From Dictyostelium discoideum (taxonomy: Eukaryota), in the NCBI GenBank assembly GCA_000004695.1, contig CM000155.2:2336001-2400000 (forward strand): DNA of 64,000 nt, written 5' to 3'. The first letter of the stretch is position 1, and every line of letters starts with the position of its first letter. Below are positions 2,738 to 30,693 of this stretch, in pieces. The position numbers were made by a program, and so were the translations under genes. The notes below the pieces were generated by a model. That model did not search any database. It was not told where the DNA came from and saw nothing but the letters and a program-made list of their open reading frames with translations.

Positions 2738-3983
2738 AAATTGATACTGTTATTTATTTATATTAATTATATATATATATTTATTTATTTACATACACGA
2801 AAGCAATAGTCGTTCGTAACAATAATTATTATAATTAATTATTTCTAAATAGTTTATTAGAAAATTATATATTCTTAAATTAGATATTCAATAATTAATA
2901 TAAATTAATTATTTTTCAAATTAGTATATTATTTTAATTATTCTCTTTTAGCAAATTATGTCAAATCATTTTATATAGTACAAAAGGTAAATTAAAATAT
3001 TATTATTTTCAGTTTTATTAGGAGATTACTCAACAATATAAAATTAATATATTTTTATAATTAATAAAATTAAATAAATAAATAAATTTTAAATTAAATT
3101 GAATTAAATTGAATTATTAAAGCTAAATAAATAAATATATATAAAATTAATATAAATAAATAAATAAATTAAATTACAAAGTTTTTCTAGATTATACCAC
3201 TTCAGTTTCAAATCAATGTAATAACCACTGTTAATCTACTAATTACAGAATTATGTTATTAAGGTCTAGACTTACTAAATGAATTACACACTACAAAGAT
3301 TATGTTGTCTATCATTCATTATAATTATGATGAATGATTGACAACTTTATTTAATGTTATTTTATGAGTATTTATACTCTTATGTTTTATGCTAGCTAAT
3401 CATTACTCGTTCCAATAGAACCTTCTAGAACGCATGTTGATTCATTAAAGATATTTATTGATTCCTTGAAAACCTTAAGAAACATCTTAACCCCTAACTT
3501 ACTTACACGAATCCATGTACCATGATTGATCACATTGTAATAAAGTTACTCTATAAAATTAATAGATATTAAATATGCATATTACATTACTAATTATAGT
3601 TGACACATTTAAATAATATAATAATAATAATAATAATACTGTCAACTCATTATAAATAATATAAATACAAAAGAATAATTTTATTTTACAATATTGAATA
3701 TCATAAAATATAAATTAATATTAAATAAAGATAACAAAATATTATTCAATTATATAATTATTAATTATATATTTTATAAAGTTAACAAGCTTCTGTAATA
3801 ATCGCGAATAATTAAACGACATAAATTATTATATAATCCACAATTTCGCTTATTTTTTGTAGGCATTTGTGTTGCTTAATATTTGTGGTGTTGTTTGTGA
3901 TTTTCATTTTATTTTCTTTCTATCTTTTTTATTTTTCTTTAAAAAGTTAAAAATCTGGAAATTTTCTGATTAACTTGGGTTCC

Positions 3984-3985
<2 letters not shown>

Positions 3986-4055
<70 letters not shown>

Positions 4056-4625
4056 TTATAGAAAGTACTGAGTGAATTATTGTATTTTTTGAGATGTTTA
4101 GGAAGTTCTATTGCGTGAAGAGGTGAGTTCCATTGTCTGCTAAATTGTAATAGCTTTAGCGAGATTAGTGAGTCTAATTTATTTTGTTCTTCAGGCCGTT
4201 GCTTTGATTTGATTCTTAATGTTTTGTTTATAACCGCTTGTGTCCTGTCCCATGCAGCTCTTTGTGTTTTAATTAGTTCACGTATGACTTGTTGTCTGTG
4301 AATTATTATTTCTTTTTCATCGTGAATGAGTTTATTTCTTTTGTGCCAGATTTTTTCGAATATGATAGCTATTAAATTGGCTACTAGTGCAATTTGTAGA
4401 TGGTTTAAAATCTTCACATTCCAGGTGTGAGTGGTGTGTCCACACTTAGTTAGGGTGTAGTTGAAGATTTCTTGTGTTTTTTTGATGTGGGCTTTGCAGT
4501 TGAAGAATATATGTTCTGAAGTCTCATCTTCCCCACACTGTTGGCATGGCATGTTGTATATTTTTGGTAGTGCTTTCAGTGTGTATCTCCATAATAGATC
4601 TCTACCTTCAGAAAACGACCTTGAT
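3986..4625 (-). mobile_element. 5'-truncated non-LTR retrotransposon 3' fragment (TRE5-like by position): ORF2 C-terminus with CCHC-type zinc motif plus a ~66-nt poly(A) tail
   Basis: The minus-strand frame is open from about 4624 to the stop at 4052-4054. It reads ...RDLLWRYTLKALPKIYNMPCQQCGEDETSEHIFFNCKAH..., the typical C-terminal Cys/His motif of LINE ORF2. The stop codon is followed directly by poly(A) on the minus strand, seen as plus-strand T run 3986-4051. The 5' junction lies ~30-50 bp upstream of the tRNA-Ser at 4655, head-to-head with it. That matches the known TRE5 target site about 48 bp upstream of tRNA genes. Confidence 0.6.
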
Positions 4626-4654
4626 TACACTTCATTACATAATCAAACATCAAA

Positions 4655-4736
4655 GACATCGTAGCAAAGTGGTCTAATGCGTCTGACTAGAAATCAGATC
4701 CCTTCGGGGGCGCAGGTTCGAACCCTGCCGATGTCG
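4655..4736 (+). tRNA. tRNA-Ser (anticodon AGA), type II with long variable arm
   Basis: The sequence is GACATCG-TA-GCA..TGC, with anticodon stem TCTGA / loop CTAGAAA / stem TCAGA. Positions 34-36 are AGA. The long variable arm is TCCCTTCGGGGGCGC, the T arm is GCAGG-TTCGAAC-CCTGC, the acceptor 3' strand is CGATGTC and the discriminator is G. There is no intron. Confidence 0.85.
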
Positions 4737-4764
4737 ATTGGTTTTGGATGTTCCAACGAAGTTC

Positions 4765-5654
4765 GGGTTTTAAAATACTAATCATAGTCCAACAGTTTTT
4801 CAAAATATAAACGATAACCATATTTTTTTTAAACTTTCAAGAGAATAATCATCATGTCCACATCACACCTCAACCCTCAACGATATGTGCAGACACTGGG
4901 GTGTATTCAGAGTCAAATTTTACCAAAACCATCCAAAGATAAATGAACTTCCAGACTGTATAAGAAACGACAATGACGAACCACTAAAACTGAAAGAAAT
5001 TTACGAACTCATGATCAAAGACAGACACCCAACACCAAGAAGAACAGAATGGCAGAAGTTATGGGCGGTGAGATACAACACAGCAATACCCAAAGTATTC
5101 ATAAACATCAACATCATTTCTCACCAAAAAGGTAGAAACACCCTCTTCAGATTCTTCTCAAGATCACTTCCAGGTATCAACCACGAAAGAGACACCAGAT
5201 GCAAGATCTGTGGCCACCTATTCAGAGACCCTTATTCTCACCTCTTCACTCTATGCCAAGATATCCTAGATATTGAAAAAACCATCATATCAACAGTTAA
5301 CAAATTATCATTCATCAAAATCCACAGATGGTCAATGGATACCTTAGACATATCAAAATACAACAGAACTGAGAGAATCTTCCCCAATCTCATAGGAATA
5401 ATAGCACACCAATTATGGAAGATAATCTGTCACAAATTGTTCAACACTGATGAAAGCAAACCAGAGCCAAAATTCGAACAAAAGGTCATAGAAACAGAAT
5501 TACTAAATCTCATCGAAACTGAAAAATTCATCACACTAAAGAAAATCAAACACGACGAAGCAATACTAAAAAACACCAATCAAGATCTTCACAAATACAA
5601 ATTCAACAAAGCCTGGCAAACCCCAGCAGCTCCGAACCCTCTTCCAATTTAAGT

Positions 5655-5700
<46 letters not shown>

Positions 5701-5850
5701 GTTTAAAAAATTTAATACAATTGAATAATAAAAATAAAATCGTTTAACAAACACCGCCGAAAAGACACAAGGACATTCCTTGAAGGTCTGATCACAGGTA
5801 AAAAAAAAAAAAAAAAATGTCCACATTGGTACTTGGACATTTTAATGTAA
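4765..5850 (-). pseudogene. Disrupted and truncated paralog of the 7104..7613 / 10747..11244 small-protein family, split by a TRE3-type insertion
   Basis: Minus strand 5850..5827 encodes MSKYQCGH. After the retroelement, minus strand 4863..4765 continues DDYSLESLKK(Y)GYRLYFEKLLDYD with one frameshift. The rejoined sequence matches the paralog N-termini MSKYKCPHDYYSLESLKKYGYRVYY and MLKYKCEHDDFSLESLKEYGYRLYF. The copy ends about 30 bp from the tRNA-Ser 3' end, so most of the gene is missing. Confidence 0.55.
4864..5817 (+). mobile_element. 5'-truncated TRE3-type non-LTR retrotransposon (ORF2 C-terminus, internal A30, ~110-bp 3' module, terminal A18) flanked by a 10-bp target-site duplication
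   Basis: The frame reads ...TLFRFFSRSLPGINHERDTRCKICGHLFRDPYSHLFTLCQD..., the Zn-knuckle C-terminus of a LINE ORF2. It is homologous to the element at 29240-30600. The stop is at 5652. An A30 run at 5661-5690 is followed by 5691-5799 of unique sequence and then an A18 run at 5800-5817. The direct repeat ATGTCCACAT at 4854-4863 and 5817-5826 brackets the element. The insertion point is ~120 bp downstream of tRNA-Ser(AGA) on the same strand, which is the classic TRE3 target position. Confidence 0.65.
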
Positions 5851-6050
5851 ATTATAAATTAGAATAGGTTATTGTGTGAACAAAAAAAATAATAAAAAAT
5901 GTTTTTTTTAAAATTAATAATTAATAATTTTAAAAGAAAAAACAAAAATAAATAAATAATAAAACTTTTTTTTTGGTTGTAATATTTTTATGAACCAACA
6001 CTCTCACCCACAACTGAAATTATATTTTTAAAACTGTTGCACCACTCTCC
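5851..6050 (-). promoter_or_regulatory. Conserved non-coding upstream element, copy 1 of 3 (5' flank of the disrupted small-gene paralog)
   Basis: Copy 1 is near-identical to 7620-7860 and ~85% identical to 11250-11480. The shared core is aattagaataggttattgtgtgaa...aatgtttttt...attaataa..agaaaaaacaaaaataaat...gtgaacc.acactctcacccacaactgaaattatattttt. Each copy lies immediately 5' of a family member on the minus strand. Confidence 0.45.
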
Positions 6051-6189
6051 AAGTGTTTTTATTTTTTTTTTTTTTTTTAAAAGCTATTTTGTGATTATTT
6101 TATATAATCTTAATATCTAATGTAATAAACTGAGCAACAAAATATGCTACCGGTTTTATGATACCCCACCAAAATACTTGTTATATTAT

Positions 6190-6830
6190 GTAATTGAAGT
6201 GGAAAATGTTATTGCTTGTTGTGATCTGATTTCTTTTCCTTTGTTGTTAATCTTGCTGTCGCTGCCTCTTTATCTTTTTTAGATCTTTCTTCTTTGGGGG
6301 CATATCCTTTTAATATCATATCTAAAATTGGTGGAGTATTACCTTCTTCAATTGTCATCAGTTCTATCAATTGTTTTTGACCCAGTGAATGCTAAACAAC
6401 ATATATATTATTACTAACACTGCTTGTTATTGGAATTGATTCGATTGAAATTATTGCAACTATACAATAATCACCTGCTAATAAATTATCAAAGATAAGG
6501 TTGCCATCAGAATCTGTTGTTGTTTGAATTAAATTGATATTGATCTGTTTGAATTGTTGATGTTTAACCATTTCCACTGTTGGTTAAAGTAATTTCATAG
6601 AATGGTGTAACTGGGAAACATGGTTTAACAATACCTTCAACACTCGGTGAATCATCAGTACGTTTACCAGTATTGGGATGATCGAACCAAACACTATCGT
6701 TTACATTGAAAGTGGAATAAGATCGAGATTTGCATTTGTGGTTGATCGAGTAAATCGAATGCGTATTTACCATTTCATCTATGACAAGTCTGTGGTTGAT
6801 GTTCAAAATTTAAAGTTATTTTTATTTATT
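6190..6830 (-). pseudogene. CnaB-type (carboxypeptidase-regulatory-like, colossin-like) repeat protein fragment with a frameshift
   Basis: Minus ORFs 6564..6806 and 6392..6577 overlap in different frames. Together they give ...VKHQQFKQININLIQTTTDSDGNLIFDNLLAGDYCIVAI..., which matches the CnaB / prealbumin-like motif TDxDGxYxFxNLxxGxYxV. A C-terminal tail ...ILDMILKGYAPKEERSKKDKEAATARLTTKEKKSDHNKQ* ends near 6190. There is no intact long ORF. Confidence 0.45.
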
Positions 6831-6997
6831 TTAATTTTATTTTATTTTATTTTATTCATTAAATAACTCATTCTCTTTTTAATTCTTACATATTTCACTT
6901 TGTGAGTTTGTGTTTGAAAAAAAAAAATTATAAAAAAAAAAAAGTTGCAACTTTTTTTAATATAATTATTATTTTATTTTTTTTTTATTATTTTTTT

Positions 6998-7040
<43 letters not shown>

Positions 7041-7103
7041 TTACAAATAACCTCAATGACAATGTTAAAAAAAAAATGGATTAAAATATGGAAAAGTTAA
7101 ACA

Positions 7104-7613
7104 CTAACGAGTGCAGTTATCTGGTAAATGGTCAGCATCATAATCACATTTTGTTCCCTCTGGAAGATCACATAATCTTACTGGCTTTCCATTAAGAATT
7201 CCAACTTTGAAATTAATTAACACAAGTTTGTTTTGCATATTGATTGGGTCTACTTTTATTTCTTTTGCATCAAAAGTTTTGTATATTCCATCGATTGGGT
7301 CCTTTCTTCTTTCTTTTAATTCGAAAAAAATTTCATAAAAAATTAGGTCACTTTCTTTTGTTTGTTTAGCATATTCAAAGATTCTAGCATCTTCAAAATA
7401 TCTTTGTGTTGAAGTTAAAAATTGCTCCATTACTATTTTATAAATCTCTTTCATTTTTGTTTTACATTCTTCGTTGCAATAACCATTAAGCATTTTTGGA
7501 AAAAGGTTAGGGTTAACCAATTCATCATAATACACACGATAACCATATTTTTTTAAACTTTCAAGAGAATAATAATCATGTGGACATTTGTACTTGGACA
7601 TTATAATGGACAT
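7104..7613 (-). CDS. Small-protein family member (169 aa), function unknown; its C-terminus ends ...CDYDADHLPDNCTR
   Basis: The ORF is intact and ~70% identical at the amino-acid level to 10747..11244. It has a conserved upstream element and an A-rich start context. No domain is recognised. Confidence 0.7.
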   Translation of the reverse strand: MSIIMSKYKCPHDYYSLESLKKYGYRVYYDELVNPNLFPKMLNGYCNEECKTKMKEIYKIVMEQFLTSTQRYFEDARIFEYAKQTKESDLIFYEIFFELKERRKDPIDGIYKTFDAKEIKVDPINMQNKLVLINFKVGILNGKPVRLCDLPEGTKCDYDADHLPDNCTR

Positions 7614-7619
7614 ACCAGT

Positions 7620-7860
7620 AAAATTGAAATAAAATAAAATGTAATACTTTGTAAATTAAAAATTAGAATAGGTTATTGTGTGAATAAAAAAAATAATAAA
7701 AAAAATGTTTTTTCAAATTATTAATAAAAGAAAAAACAAAAATAAATGGATAATAAAACTTTTTTGCTTGTAATATTTTGTGAACCCACACTCTCACCCA
7801 CAACTGAAATTATATTTTTAACACAAAATTTCCAATATCAACACTGTTGTACAACCACTT
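7620..7860 (-). promoter_or_regulatory. Conserved non-coding upstream element, copy 2
   Basis: See 5851-6050. It lies directly 5' of the 7104..7613 CDS. Confidence 0.45.
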
Positions 7861-8264
7861 ACAAATTGTTTTTACTTTTTTTTACAAATTGTATTGAGCT
7901 CCAAAAATAGAATACTAGAAAAAAAAAACTAATTTATAGAAAATGAAAAATAAAGAAAGAAAATCATTCATTCATTCATTCCAACAGACTGATTAAAACA
8001 AAAACAACAACAACAACAACAAATAAATAAAATAATGAAAAAGGTCAGAGTCAACCAACTCTTCATAAAAAGTATAACTAAATTTTTGGCTTTTTTCTAT
8101 GTTATTTATTGATTTACCAATATATAGAAGTGGAAATGGAATATTTGGAGGGGAACCTGTATATGTATTTGGTTTTTGTGAGAAAATTAAATAAACACCT
8201 GGAAATGCACATTCTTTTGGAGGTTCTCCATCATCTAAAAAAGGAACACATATCCATATAAAGA

Positions 8265-8777
8265 ATGGGAAAAGGTGAATTGGAACTTGCAGGATTTATC
8301 CTTTCTGAAGCATTTGATGAGAAAGCTGAAAAAGAAAAAGTTGAAAAGGAAAAAGCTCTAAAAGAGAAAACTGAAAAAGAAAAAGCTGAAAAAGAGAAAG
8401 CTGAAAAAGAGAAAGTTGAAAAAGAGAAAGCTGAAAAAGAGAAAGCTGCCAAGGAAAAAGCTGCAAAGGAAAAAGCTGAAAGAGAGAAATCAAAGAGTGC
8501 TGTTTCACCAGCTACCACCAATCAAAATTCAAATAAAGGTAATGTAGAAAAGGGTGTAGCAATTGGAGTTTTGGCAGGTGGTGCTGTTACTGGTGTTGCT
8601 GTCGGAGGTGCTTATCTTGCCGATAAATATATTGCTAGTAAAGCCGCTGGAGCCGCTGTTAATGTTATTGAACTAACACCAATTCCAAATGCTGCAAACA
8701 CTGCAAACAATGCAGCAGCTGTTAGTCAAGGTTCGCACCGTTGGCAACCACTACCATATTATTTGTTTAATATTTAA
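8265..8777 (+). CDS. Possible low-complexity protein: (EKEKA)n repeat region plus a Gly/Ala-rich hydrophobic C-terminal segment (GVLAGGAVTGVAVGGAYLADKY)
   Basis: This is a 170-aa ORF with an in-frame stop just upstream. The repeat is a 15-bp unit gaaaaagagaaagct x ~10. Minus-strand ORFs overlap it, so the coding strand is not secure. Confidence 0.3.
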   Translation: MGKGELELAGFILSEAFDEKAEKEKVEKEKALKEKTEKEKAEKEKAEKEKVEKEKAEKEKAAKEKAAKEKAEREKSKSAVSPATTNQNSNKGNVEKGVAIGVLAGGAVTGVAVGGAYLADKYIASKAAGAAVNVIELTPIPNAANTANNAAAVSQGSHRWQPLPYYLFNI

Positions 8778-9389
8778 TTGGTGATCACTTAGTTTTATAA
8801 AAAATTTTAGAGTGAGAATTAAATAAAATTTTTTTTAATTCTTTAATTAGAGTAATAATAATTTAATTTTTTATTTTTTTTTTATTTAATTGTTAGAGAA
8901 TTATATTATGCAATTGTAGTCAAACATTTCTATTCCTTTTGACTGAGAGTATTTTTGGGTGCAAGAATAGGATCATCCAAAAGGACGAAATAAATATGTT
9001 AAACCTGACATTGAATATTTTATAGTATCACCTCCTTGAATTTTATTTTTTTCATGACTGAATTCATTCTTGTTGCTTGTTGTTGACGGTTGTTAGTTGT
9101 TGGTTGTTGATTGTTTTTGTTGGTTGTTGGTTGCTGTGTTGTTGGTTGTTGTTTGTTTACCTTTATTATTTTTTATTGCTTGTTTTGTATTAATTGAATA
9201 ACTGGTGGGTAAATATTCGATGATATTGTTGAAGATGAAAGAGTCATAGTGGGTACATTTTGTTGTTGTGATCTGAGTTGTTTTTTAATTTTTAGATATA
9301 TTATCTTTCTTTTTCTTTGTTGGTGTTGTTGCTACAAGGATAAGTCCTGCAAGTTCCAATTCACCTTTTCCCCATTCTTTAATTTTTGT

Positions 9390-9990
9390 CCAGTAGTTCC
9401 TGTTGTTAATCTCGCCGCCTTTATTTTTTTTAGATATACCTTTCTTCTTTGAAGCATATCCTTTAATATCATATCTAAAATTGGTGGAATATTACCTTCT
9501 TCAATTTATTCTAAATATTTTACCAATTTTGAATGAATCTAACCAAGCACTATCCTCAACTGTGAGTAATGGAAATAAACCAAGATTGGCGTTTATAATT
9601 GTTTCATCGAAAACAATATGATCCTGATACTTGATCTTTTAATGCATATTTACCATTTTCATTTGTGACAAAGGTGTAATTAATGTTCCATTTGTTGATG
9701 ATGTGATAATAACTTGAACCCCATCTGATTCTTCTTTACCACTGTTATTCTTATTGATCTAAAATATTGAGCAATATCGAGTGTTGATACGAAACCTGGA
9801 TTGCCATCAGTTCTATGAATAGATTGTGATCCAGTGGGTGCTAATCAATATTCATTATCAGCAAAGAAATTATCTGCACTGCTTGTTACTAGAATTGATC
9901 GATTAGAGTTTGCAACTATACAATCACCTGCTAACAAATTATCAAAGATAGGGTTGCCATCAGAATCTGGTGTTGTTTAAATTAAATTAC
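9390..9990 (-). pseudogene. Second, rearranged copy of CnaB/colossin-like gene fragments
   Basis: Segments 9421-9500, 9781-9850 and 9885-9985 match 6275-6350, 6340-6400 and 6455-6535. An extra CnaB-like unit (...VTNENGKYALKDQVSGSYCF...) is inserted at about 9500-9780. The frames are broken. Confidence 0.4.
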
Positions 9991-10107
9991 CATTTGAGTA
10001 TTGTGGGTCATGATTCTATGATTTCAAACTACGTTCTAAATTTAATGAACATTAATGAAAATTCTTCTTTTGAATTTTTTGAATCTTTATCTTTATCTTT
10101 ATCTTTA

Positions 10108-10247
<140 letters not shown>

Positions 10248-10746
10248 TCATTTTTTCATATTTCTTTAATTTTTTATTTCATTTTTACGATCGTGGAACA
10301 AAATATAATGGTTCGAGCAAAAATTGAAAAAAAAAAAAAAAATTGGAAAAATTGGAAAAAAAAAAAAAAAAAAAAAAAAAAATTGGCGCTAAATGAAAGT
10401 AAATTGTTATTTATTCTCAAAACAATCTAATAACCTTTTTATAAATAGTTTTTTTATTGTTTTGGTTAAATTAATAGTTTTTAATATTTAAAAAAAAAAA
10501 AAAAAATAAAAAAATAAACAAAAAATAAAAAAAAGAAATCACACTATTTTTTTTTTAAATCAAAAATAAATTAAAAAATAAAATTAAAAAAAAAAAAAAG
10601 AGGCAAGGCTGATGGTTGAATTGTTGTTATAAAAAAAATAGATAAAAAACATTGATATTTATTTATTAAATTTGGATATTTGTGAAAAAAAAATAAGGAT
10701 TGAGAATGATACAAAAAAAAACCTTTTTTTACCTAAAGTTGAAACA

Positions 10747-28681: not shown

Positions 28682-29115
28682 AATAAAATAAAAATAAAAA
28701 TAAAATTAATTAATAAATAAAAAATAAAAATAAAAAAAAACTGCATTTTTAATCAAGTTAATATCCTAATCGTGTGTTTTGGAAAAAAAAAAAACCCCTT
28801 TATTTCTTTATTAATTCCTTTACCCCATAACTAAGGTTTGGTATTTTATATTTTTTTTTTTTTTTTTTTTTGGATCAATTCTTAAACAAACTTTAAAATT
28901 TTTTTATTTTTTTTATTTTTAGTAGTTGGATATTTTCCCCTAAAGATTTTAACTATCTTACCAAAATTGTTTATTTAATTTAGAGGAGTTGAAATATGTC
29001 TTTTAAAGATTTAAGTGTTTTTTTTAGGAATTGATCCTGTGTTTTTTGTAAAAAAATAATTATTTTAAATTTTTTTCAATTTTTTTTATGCAATTCATCA
29101 TGAGAAATCATCAGA

Positions 29116-29187
29116 TCCTCTTTGGTGTAGTCGGTAACACTCTAGTCTCTCACACTGGTACCCCGGGTTCGATTCCCGGAAGGGGAG
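29116..29187 (+). tRNA. tRNA-Glu (anticodon CTC)
   Basis: The sequence is TCCTCTT-TG-GTGT-AGTCGGTA-ACAC-T-CTAGT-CTCTCAC-ACTGG-TACC-CCGGG-TTCGATT-CCCGG-AAGGGGA-G. Positions 34-36 are CTC. The TTTTTT terminator is at 29190-29196. Confidence 0.85.
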
Positions 29188-29217
29188 GTCTTTTTTATCC
29201 GGTCACCATTAGATCAA

Positions 29218-29229
29218 GGGTTCAATTCC
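29218..29229 (+). promoter_or_regulatory. Ex-B box downstream of tRNA-Glu
   Basis: GGGTTCAATTCC (B-box consensus GGTTCGAATCC) lies about 30 nt 3' of the tRNA end. Confidence 0.45.
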
Positions 29230-29239
29230 ATATAAAATC

Positions 29240-30693
29240 AAGTCTTACCAACTATCAAAGATCATCCTTAGTACTATGGAAAACCACTGACTCAACAATC
29301 AAAACCAAAACCAACATCCTCAAAGCATTCGCACTCTCTAAATTAACCTACTATTCATATGTAGAGAACTTTAAGGAAGAGGAATTAAACCAAATCAATA
29401 AATTAGTCGAATGGTTTTTATCGGCACCAAACAACAAAAATGCTAGTGGATTTCAAGTTATTAATTTAATGAGAACCAAAAGAGCAAGATACCCACTAAA
29501 AGTAGGGGGCTGGAACATTTGGAATATAGAATTGAGACAACTGGCGCAGAAACTTTGGATCATAAACCAGTTCATCCTAGCACTAGAAACCAAACAAACA
29601 AACTCATCTCATCACAAAAGCTGGGAATATCAGATCCAAAAAAACAAATTCACATCCAGATACCTAAAAGAAAACTTAGACGAATGGAACAAAATAAGAA
29701 TAAAAAAAGCAATCTTCAACAATAATCTCACATCCATAAAAAACGAAAATGGACAACCACTTTCACTGGCAGAATGGTATACCACAATTCAAGACCAAAA
29801 TCCAACCATCCCTAAAACGGAATTCCAATCATCTCTAAACTTAAGAGGCTACAGCTATAATCAACTCTTCAACAACATACTGAAGATAAAAGACCCTAAA
29901 ACAAGAGACACAATGTTTAGATTCCATGCCAGATGCCTTCCAATAAACTACCTTCACAACAAACAATGCCCACTCTGCAAAGAAGATATGAGCAAAGACC
30001 CATACGGTCACCTGTTCTTCTCATGCAAGAAAACAAAACAATTCATAAAAATAAATAAACTCAAAAATTTCATCTATATTACCACAGGCAAAGGTAAAAA
30101 CTGGCACCATACAAGAATTAGGCAAAATAACAATTTCATTAATAGAATAACTCCAAAATTATCACCGACAGCCAAAAAAGATCAAGAAGTGAATGCAGAT
30201 TACGCCAACCACAGATTCCACAAAGAATACTTTGAATGGAACTATAAAGCAATAGACTATGATCTAACCAGATCATTCGCATATAGAAACCTAATGGCCC
30301 TTATCCTCCACAACATTTGGATTTGGATTTGCAATCAAATATACAGTGAAGATCCTTTAACAGATGAATCACTATCATACAGCTCCCTTCTAAAGAAATG
30401 GCACAAATTGGCCACTCTAGAATACATCAAAAAAGCAAAAGATCTGAAAAACTTATCAGCAAAAGACCATAATAACTTCAAAGATCCTAAGATCCTTCTC
30501 ACTTCAACGATCAAGCTAAGAAAAACAACAGCTAATTACTATTGTATTCCAGAATCATCTCTCCCAAATATTATATCTTTTGATCAATTCATATGATTAA
30601 AATAACCCTTCAGCTTAAATGATAAGCCTTTAAATAAATATTAAATAAAACTCGTATTAACACAGATGGACATATATCAATCTTGTTAATCCA

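Follow-up and report, generated by a model that had tools for sequence, protein, structure and literature searches.

Organization of the tRNA-Ser(AGA) Locus

The analyzed window comprises 64,000 bp (64 kb) of Dictyostelium discoideum AX4 chromosome 6. A tRNA-Ser(AGA) gene was located at positions 4655–4736 on the + strand (ARAGORN; Rfam RF00005, 61.5 bits). A retroelement lies on each side of it, a truncated TRE5-type copy upstream and a truncated TRE3-type copy downstream, both in canonical positions and orientations, as the original prediction held. The tRNA gene is the RNA polymerase III target of both flanking insertions. The labels TRE5 and TRE3 are based here on position, orientation and homolog context. 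The window also contains a tandem cluster of paralogs in the order B, A, C, in which A corresponds to 7104–7613 (169-aa ORF) and B to 10747–11244. The product of the 7104 gene showed 100% identity to the AX4 protein DDB_G0293026 (P0031).

This arrangement is very probably that of an ordinary D. discoideum tRNA gene with both flanks taken by tRNA-gene-targeted non-LTR retrotransposons (TREs). As a "double landing pad" the locus is not unusual by published frequencies: 61% of D. discoideum tRNA genes are accompanied by any TRE, and 13% have both TRE5 and TRE3 (PMC5006619). tRNA genes with TREs on both flanks are published as common, and the locus is known biology.

A Pfam search with the ORF2 tails of the two elements returned nothing significant, only sub-threshold matches, with a weak zf-RVT match for the upstream tail. 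Proteins matching the ORF2 tails in the databases carry only "hypothetical protein" names.

The Upstream TRE5-Type Element

The 5′-truncated TRE5-type ORF2 C-terminal tail was identified by translation and homology at 4052–4609 on the − strand. It carries a CCHC knuckle, CQQCGEDETSEHIFFNC, and its translation, ...GRDLLWRYTLKALPKIYNMPCQQCGEDETSEHIFFNC...STFYK*, ends at 4052–4054. The tail was 98% identical to D. discoideum protein P0012. At the nucleotide level it was 92% identical to positions 10004–10597 of locus L005, the match beginning at window position 4609. The edge of the element had been drawn at 4625; homology to other copies begins at 4609, and positions 4610–4624 represent a chance open frame. 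According to these coordinates, the TRE5-type 5′ end is separated from the first tRNA nucleotide by a spacer of 45 nt (4610–4654).

With this spacer and its orientation opposite to that of the tRNA gene (− strand versus +), the element agrees with the published TRE5 range of 44–54 bp upstream in opposite orientation (PMC5911963) and with the range of 37–90 bp given for TRE5-A (PMC5006619, Table 1). The predicted head-to-head placement of a truncated LINE ORF2 tail in the TRE5 position was thus confirmed. The L005 copy of the tail lies ~50 bp upstream of tRNA-Glu, also head-to-head, and the copies at L007 are found upstream of tRNA-Leu in the same geometry.

The ORF2 stop is followed by a 66-nt A-run (3988–4053, − strand; a T-run on the + strand) and then by a 152-bp TRE5-type 3′ module (3836–3987, − strand). 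The module was 98.8% identical to positions 895–1057 of L005, where it is situated 46 bp upstream of tRNA-Leu, and 94% identical to positions 5112–5249 of L006, where it likewise comes after an ORF2 stop and an A-run; the architecture ORF2-stop / A-run / C(C/T)TGGGAACCC is shared with L006. Unique host flank was rejected as an interpretation of 3836–3987, the same sequence being present at two other loci. The element had been thought to end at 3986 with a poly(A) tail. Since the module recurs after an A-run elsewhere, the left limit is more likely 3836, and the supposed tail is probably an A-run inside the element, with the 3′ module after it. The upstream insertion would then consist of an ORF2 tail, an internal A-run and a partial B-module-like 3′ module. 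Folding of the module's 3′ end predicted a stem-loop that did no better than shuffled sequence (z-score −0.9).

TRE5-A (formerly DRE) has the structure AB-ORF1/ORF2-BC (PMC3159450). Its 3′ UTR is recognized by a duplicated B-module containing the ORF1 start, then a C-module of 134–137 bp. At L005, a B-like module of ~296 nt precedes an oligo(A)-rich C-like module of ~129 nt. The 3836–3987 module holds an ORF1-like start, MKITNNTTNI..., with Ile at residue 10, in line with the "ORF1 I10*" mutant described for TRE5-A (PMC3159450). The upstream element is probably TRE5-A. It resembles this family in its head-to-head orientation across the spacer and in the passage from an ORF2 zinc-knuckle tail to a module with an ORF1-like start, as in the 3′ B-module.

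Unlike TRE5-A, the upstream copy ends 152 nt into the B-like module. Neither a C-module nor a terminal poly(A) was found past its final ...GCGAAATTGTGGAT; no A-run was read in the sequence beyond 3836. Exhaustive comparison of the flanks revealed no convincing target-site duplication, the best candidates being the 7-mer AAACGAC and an AT-rich 10-of-11 match. Both were taken as chance matches; the latter would put the element 10 nt from the tRNA gene. The C-module and poly(A) at the far 3′ end of this copy, as well as its target-site duplication, would accordingly be missing or unrecognizable. The upstream element is not cleanly resolvable; the missing duplication and oligo(A) concern the integrity of this copy, not its family origin.

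The same stretch might instead record two separate insertions, a TRE5 tail with a genuine 66-nt poly(A) placed beside an older, independent TRE5 fragment at 3836–3987. TRE–TRE tandems at a single tRNA gene are common (PMC5391098), and L007 offers an example in which a different element begins directly after the A35 that ends a near-identical ORF2 tail, so that an A-run after the stop can be a junction; the tRNA-Glu copy at L005 also continues into a different sequence after its A-run. Against two insertions, the junction A-run / C(C/T)TGGGAACCC was observed at three independent loci (the window, L006 and the tRNA-Leu copy of L005), and none of the three contains a spacer or a duplication at this point. 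The module starts on the same nucleotide in all three, which is a better fit to a fixed internal boundary than to coincident nested insertions. We therefore regard two upstream insertions as unlikely and keep to a single insertion with an internal A-run.

The Downstream TRE3-Type Element

The downstream element is a 5′-truncated TRE3-type LINE tail of 953 bp at 4864–5816 on the + strand. Its ORF2 C-terminal tail occupies 4864–5652 (stop at 5650–5652) and was identified by translation, which contains the CCHC knuckle and reads ...CKICGHLFRDPYSHLFTLC...PNPLPI*. The truncation point was placed at 4864, as the AX4 protein P0010 extends further upstream via ...KKA|HTSTLND. Because of the 5′ truncation, the endonuclease and reverse-transcriptase domains are absent. 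In a protein search, homologs of the translated tail were found only in Dictyostelium.

The 3′ UTR of this copy is bipartite. An internal run of 34 A (5658–5691), read in the sequence, is followed by a conserved 108-nt tail (5692–5799). The tail has a predicted terminal hairpin (fold energy −14.3 kcal/mol, z-score −2.3). It was ~95% identical to a D. citrinum copy (L001) as far as the final A-run and was also found in D. dimigraforme (L010). A terminal poly(A) of 17–18 nt (5800–5816) closes the element; the A at 5817 is ambiguous and could belong to the target-site duplication.

The element and the tRNA gene are both on the + strand, with the element's 5′ end toward the tRNA. Past the tRNA 3′ end, the duplication starts at 117 nt and the element at 127 nt, in keeping with the predicted LINE fragment ~120 bp downstream in the TRE3 position. 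[quoted passage not shown]

The D. citrinum copy is located 241 bp downstream of tRNA-Pro and again points the same way as the tRNA gene. Its 3′ end is likewise bipartite, including the internal A-run, and it has a duplication of its own, ATCCTTTGATCAA; the window and D. citrinum sequences part exactly at the start of each one's duplication. For the D. dimigraforme copy the nearest Rfam tRNA was 395 bp away on the opposite strand, which makes it ambiguous as a positional control.

The window contains a second TRE3-positioned element, downstream of tRNA-Glu, to which the downstream tail aligned with 63.5 bits (E 8e-16). The corresponding value for the upstream tail was 29 bits (E 3e-5), with 24% amino-acid identity. 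By these alignments the downstream tail is closer to the other TRE3-positioned element than to its upstream neighbor. The low identity between the two tails upholds the proposal that the flanking elements come from different tRNA-targeted non-LTR families.

The downstream copy shares with the TRE3 family (TRE3-A/Tdd-3, -B, -C and -D) its position downstream of a tRNA gene within the published range, the same orientation, the 5′ end facing the tRNA, the poly(A) end, a target-site duplication of variable length, 5′ truncation and the C-terminal CCHC zinc knuckle of ORF2, as well as the confinement of its homologs to Dictyostelium. It departs from the family in that all but the final 953 bp are gone, the endonuclease and reverse-transcriptase domains included. 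Human and mouse L1 copies, 5′-truncated through target-primed reverse transcription, are likewise dead-on-arrival 3′ fragments; they and the downstream copy alike end in poly(A), lie within a short target-site duplication and show no more than 1 nt of microhomology where the 5′ end joins the target. Target choice differs from that of L1: what counts here is how far the site lies from an RNA polymerase III gene and how the element is oriented to that gene, rather than a TTTT/A endonuclease consensus.

The element is bracketed by the direct repeat ATGTCCACAT, with exactly matching copies at 4854–4863 and 5817–5826 on the + strand. A 10-bp repeat had been predicted at precisely these positions; its length is 9–10 bp, given the ambiguous A at 5817. 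In the 64 kb searched, these were the only two occurrences on the + strand, and the composition-based probability of the sequence at a given site is 6e-7. With its 9–10 bp duplication, the downstream insertion proved as fully resolvable as had been claimed.

We infer target-primed reverse transcription as the route by which the TRE3-type element entered the site, its 5′ end pointing toward the 3′ end of the tRNA gene. An early stop of reverse transcription would have left the 953-bp 3′ fragment of ORF2 zinc-knuckle tail and bipartite 3′ UTR, and staggered nicks would have produced the 9–10 bp duplication. The insertion position was presumably dictated by RNA polymerase III factors at the tRNA gene and not by the target sequence. 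A degenerate motif, GAAGTTCGGGTTTT, read directly at 4757–4770 (+), ~100 bp upstream of the TRE3 insertion point, resembles an external B box and may act as one.

A similar motif, CGAAGTTCGG, was observed in the 3′ flank of tRNA-Glu at L005.

Insertion Site and Paralog Remnant

The sequence on both sides of the downstream element is homologous to paralogs A and B. The distal part of a paralog C remnant, at 4787–4863 (− strand), covers codons ~6–32 with a +1 A frameshift and was 88% identical to 11155–11230 and 89% identical to 7525–7587. The proximal part, at 5827–6034 (− strand), contains the start codon (5838–5840), the first codons and ~190 bp of promoter sequence; it was 85.7% identical to 7650–7824 and 77% identical to 11294–11464.

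Deletion of 4864–5826 yielded, on the − strand, ATG TCC AAG TAC CAA TGT GGA CAT GAT GAT ..., translating to MSKYQCGHDDYSLESLKK; the reconstructed empty-site sequence reads ...CAATGTGGACATGATG... on the same strand. The reconstructed site aligned to paralogs A and B with no gap at the junction. Removal of the element had been predicted to rebuild codons 1–25 of a paralog of the 7104/10747 family. The gap-free homology bears this out, and the frame does end after 25 codons; it is cut off there by a 1-nt frameshift within an A-run.

The further claim that the insertion split a protein-coding gene was not sustained. Homology is limited to the two segments, is frameshifted and ends at ~4787, ~50 bp from the tRNA gene, covering the promoter and ~32 codons; tblastn detected no further piece of paralog C in the 64-kb window. 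Since TRE3 targeting requires a tRNA nearby, the fragment would already have been truncated at the time of insertion. The insertion-site sequence would then be the 5′ remnant of a third cluster member already adjoining the tRNA flank, and no working gene would have been destroyed.

It is very improbable that the TRE3 insertion broke up and inactivated a functional protein-coding paralog, a reading that is already largely refuted. The rebuilt site does have an intact ATG, 18 family-typical codons and ~190 bp of conserved upstream sequence, and at the corresponding position in strain ACTFIW (L003) the third paralog is full-length (163 aa). In the window, besides the frameshift in the A-run and the end of homology at ~4787 with no other gene part in 64 kb, the distances speak against it: the insertion lies 117 bp from the tRNA gene, and a full gene would need ~470 bp in between. 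The site would then have been ~520 bp from the tRNA, beyond all published TRE3 ranges (14–305 bp; PMC5006619, Table 1).

That the 10-bp repeat is a coincidence and the LINE fragment arrived by segmental duplication or recombination can be practically discounted: the adjacent paralog cluster is recombinogenic and its copy number differs among strains, but ATGTCCACAT directly borders both the truncation point and the terminal poly(A) of the element, is found nowhere else on the + strand of the window, gives gap-free homology to two paralogs once the element is taken out, and is replaced by different duplications at the same element end in copies from other species.

Comparison with Other Strains and Annotation

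Among the assemblies reached through flanking-protein look-ups, no empty allele was found. The sole collinear second assembly, GCA_054883475.1 (L002, L004), was 99.7% identical, and its site was also filled. In more distant strains, namely ACTFIW and the D. cf. discoideum assemblies L008 and L009, the paralog family is rearranged and lacks the tRNA-Ser(AGA) gene, leaving no orthologous empty site; ACTFIW has three full-length paralogs and no tRNA-Ser(AGA) within 9 kb.

That paralog C was truncated and came to lie next to the tRNA-Ser(AGA)/TRE cluster could conceivably reflect a rearrangement specific to the lineage of AX4 and GCA_054883475.1, a suggestion we put forward with low confidence. 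Ectopic recombination between TREs or tRNA flanks might have been its origin. In that case a gene would have been lost in association with TREs at this locus, and the loss would be polymorphic among D. discoideum isolates.

No new principle emerges from the locus. It is neutral on whether tRNA-gene targeting protects host genes, because the target would already have been dead. Its importance is mostly one of annotation: it illustrates cleanly how TRE3 and TRE5 are targeted in the reference genome. Segments 4787–4863 and 5827–6034 should be labeled as a gene remnant rather than a disrupted gene. The ORFs 4052–4552 and 4885–5652, annotated as genes in a recent assembly, are retrotransposon ORF2 tails and not host genes.

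Occupancy of the tRNA-Ser(AGA) gene

The tRNA-Ser(AGA) gene was located at 4655–4736 on the forward strand by both ARAGORN and Rfam, with its TTTT terminator at 4742–4745, in an AT-rich window (GC 16–36%) that matches a second D. discoideum assembly, GCA_054883475.1, at 99.7% identity across 16 kb. A degenerate B-box-like motif, GAAGTTCGGGTTTT, follows at 4757–4770 and, judging by its sequence, may be considered external-B-box-like; an unrelated tRNA-Glu gene (locus L005) has a similar motif, CGAAGTTCGG, in its 3′ flank.

As originally observed, the gene is doubly occupied. A TRE5-type element lies upstream, head-to-head with the tRNA gene across a 45-nt spacer, which is the canonical TRE5 geometry; on the other side, a target-site duplication and the start of a TRE3-type element are found 117 and 127 nt past the tRNA 3′ end, respectively. 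Because at least one TRE is present at 61% of D. discoideum tRNA genes, and TRE5 and TRE3 together at 13% (PMC5006619), the locus is a standard case within a well-annotated reference genome, and its double occupancy is biology already known. The tRNA-Ser(GCT) gene (11716–11798, reverse strand, in the segment 11640–11800), located 7 kb away, has an external B box GGTTCGAATC, the reverse complement of 11681–11690, and carries no TRE on either side.

Structure of the TRE3-type insertion

From 4864, the forward strand encodes HTSTLNDMCRHWGV...CKICGHLFRDPYSHLFTLC...PNPLPI*, ending at 5652. A database search returned relatives of this ORF2 tail from Dictyostelium species only. A longer copy, AX4 protein P0010, reads ...QLSRKKA|HTSTLNDMC... 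and extends further upstream; therefore, the window copy is truncated at 4864, with microhomology of at most 1 nt at the junction. The stop codon is followed, on the same strand, by an A34 run (5658–5691), a 108-nt tail (5692–5799) and a terminal A-run of 17–18 nt starting at 5800. Since a D. citrinum copy (L001) is ~95% identical through the final A-run and the two copies part exactly at their own target-site duplications (TGTCCACAT... in the window, ATCCTTTGATCAA in D. citrinum), this bipartite 3′ end is part of the element. The D. dimigraforme copy (L010) has the same 3′ tail and a different duplication, ATCAAAAAAAGATG. The last 47 nt are predicted to form a hairpin (−14.3 kcal/mol, z-score −2.3).

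The element is bracketed by an exact 10-bp duplication, ATGTCCACAT, at 4854–4863 and 5817–5826 (forward strand), and occurs nowhere else on that strand of the window; for any given site, this 10-mer has a probability of 6e-7. With 4864–5826 deleted, the reverse strand reads ATGTCCAAGTACCAATGTGGACATGATGATTATTCTCTTGAAAGTTTAAAAAAAA..., translated as MSKYQCGHDDYSLESLKK, and the rebuilt site aligns without gaps over the junction with paralog A (7104–7613, 100% identical to D. discoideum AX4 protein DDB_G0293026) and paralog B (10747–11244). This alignment is independent proof of both the insertion and the duplication, and the insertion is resolvable as had been proposed.

Target of the insertion

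The interrupted sequence, paralog C (4787–4863 and 5827–6034), matches paralogs A and B at 88–89% over 4787–4863 and their upstream regions at 77–86% over 5846–6034. Its frame is shifted by one extra A in an A-run. Since the likeness fades at ~4780–4787, 50 bp short of the tRNA gene, and tblastn with both paralog proteins found no remaining parts of paralog C in the 64 kb, the target comprised a promoter and about 32 codons; the suggestion that the element split a protein-coding gene was thus not borne out. TRE3 is positioned by the tRNA gene, and a full-length paralog C would set the insertion site about 520 bp from it, a distance that no published range includes; hence the remnant must already have been truncated and beside the tRNA gene when hit. 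The third paralog was probably intact ancestrally, since strain ACTFIW has three full-length paralogs following tRNA-Ser(GCT); no tRNA-Ser(AGA) was found within this 20-kb locus. In a search of other assemblies for an empty allele, the sole collinear one, GCA_054883475.1, was filled, and more divergent assemblies had rearranged loci.

Position and family of the TRE3-type element

The element is oriented as the tRNA gene, with its 5′ end toward it, and lies ~100 nt beyond the external-B-box-like motif. According to published data, TRE3 inserts 40–150 bp downstream and points the same way as the tRNA gene (PMC5911963); the subfamilies together cover 14–305 bp (PMC5006619, Table 1). In D. citrinum, the homolog is found 241 bp downstream of tRNA-Pro(TGG) and co-oriented with it, inside another TRE3-type element; within L001 4040–5260, it is inserted at codons ISFDQ in the 3′ end of that element, with ATCCTTTGATCAA duplicated. 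The D. dimigraforme locus is ambiguous as a positional comparison: ARAGORN found no tRNA, Rfam placed one 395 bp off on the opposite strand, and the same strand has a tRNA-like sequence with a B box, 280 bp upstream.

An internal control was provided by a second, different 5′-truncated TRE3-type element (motif CPLCKEDMSKDPYGHLFFSC) downstream of tRNA-Glu(CTC) (29116–29187, forward strand), whose external B box GGTTCAATTCC (29221–29231) was rated good. The control starts at ~29240, with its ORF running to 30596 and a 3′ UTR plus A31 run ending at ~30725; an ORF call of 29088–30596 was rejected as an artefact passing through the tRNA gene. The 4864–5652 tail matched the control element with 63.5 bits (E 8e-16) but reached no more than 29 bits against the upstream tail (E 3e-5; 24% identity over 97 aa). 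This difference bears out the two TRE families, one on each side, and the proposed distinction between a downstream DPY.HLF and an upstream SEH knuckle class therefore holds in the present data.

The upstream TRE5-type element

The reverse strand encodes ...GRDLLWRYTLKALPKIYNMPCQQCGEDETSEHIFFNC...STFYK* (stop codon 4052–4054); AX4 protein P0012 shares 98% identity with it, and in longer relatives the sequence reads ...KKIINMKGRDLLWRY. DNA homology to L005 10004–10597 (92%) begins at 4609, and the end originally placed at 4625 reflects a chance open frame. The L005 copy has the same geometry, about 50 bp upstream of tRNA-Glu(TTC).

On the left, CCTGGGAACCC...GCGAAATTGTGGAT (3987 down to 3836) follows a 66-nt A-run. 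Copies elsewhere ruled out this module as unique flank. One, at L005 895–1057, is 98.8% identical and lies with an A12 run 46 bp upstream of tRNA-Leu(TAG); another, in L006, is 94% identical and likewise follows an ORF2 stop and A27. In L005 the module extends to 296 nt; after it come A23 and a segment of ~106 nt that is rich in oligo(A) and ends AATTGCGTTATCCAATTC(A)n. Its ATG-initiated ORF begins MKITNNTTNI..., with Ile at residue 10. TRE5-A has the layout AB-ORF1/ORF2-BC, with a 290-bp B-module containing the ORF1 start and a C-module of 134–137 bp; an ORF1 I10* mutant has been described, and 3′ B-modules are absent from TRE5-B and TRE5-C (PMC3159450). Given the recurrent ORF1-start module after ORF2, Ile10 and this absence, the upstream element is somewhat likely to be TRE5-A-like, spanning 3836–4609. 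The copy stops within the B-like module, terminal poly(A) is absent and comparison of the flanks gave no convincing target-site duplication, so that the clean anatomy first envisaged did not hold. A less likely alternative for this region is that two independent insertions abut at the A-run; L007 shows that junctions of this kind exist. A diverged tail in L007 is directly followed by a C-like segment, in agreement with TRE5-C as described (PMC3159450).

L007 3138–4110, upstream of tRNA-Leu(CAA), contains three stacked TRE5 pieces with the common target sequence TGGGACAACCAC(ATG) three times: a 7-nt C-module end with A24, a TRE5-A-like tail with A35, and the diverged TRE5-C-like tail with its C-like module. 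The stack implies either that one target site was used repeatedly or that a composite insertion arose by template switching. In L006, the B-like module of the TRE5 copy is interrupted by a ~750-bp element (4364–5113). This element is bounded by terminal inverted repeats (CACAGCAAAGAAAAATGCACCTTTAAAG... / ...CTTTAAAGGTGGTTTTTTCTTCGCTGTG) and contains internal 'tttaaag' repeats as well as a tRNA-like fragment.

Paralog cluster and annotation

The paralogs, members of an uncharacterised gene family found only in Dictyostelium, form a tandem cluster (4787–11606) with B at 10735–11606, A at 7093–7972 and the C remnant. Neighbour segments 9401–9988 and 6242–6535 were duplicated along with them. Assemblies of D. 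discoideum and D. cf. discoideum (L003, L008, L009) differ strongly in copy number and context; they have three to four copies or more, and some of these are at loci without tRNA genes. A 45-bp inverted repeat (8259–8303 / 9336–9381, 95.7% identical) flanks the gene at 8265–8777 and its downstream region. The gene calls of the recent assembly GCA_054883475.1 (L002/L004) list both retrotransposon ORF2 tails (166 aa and 255 aa) as ordinary genes; these calls are annotation false positives.
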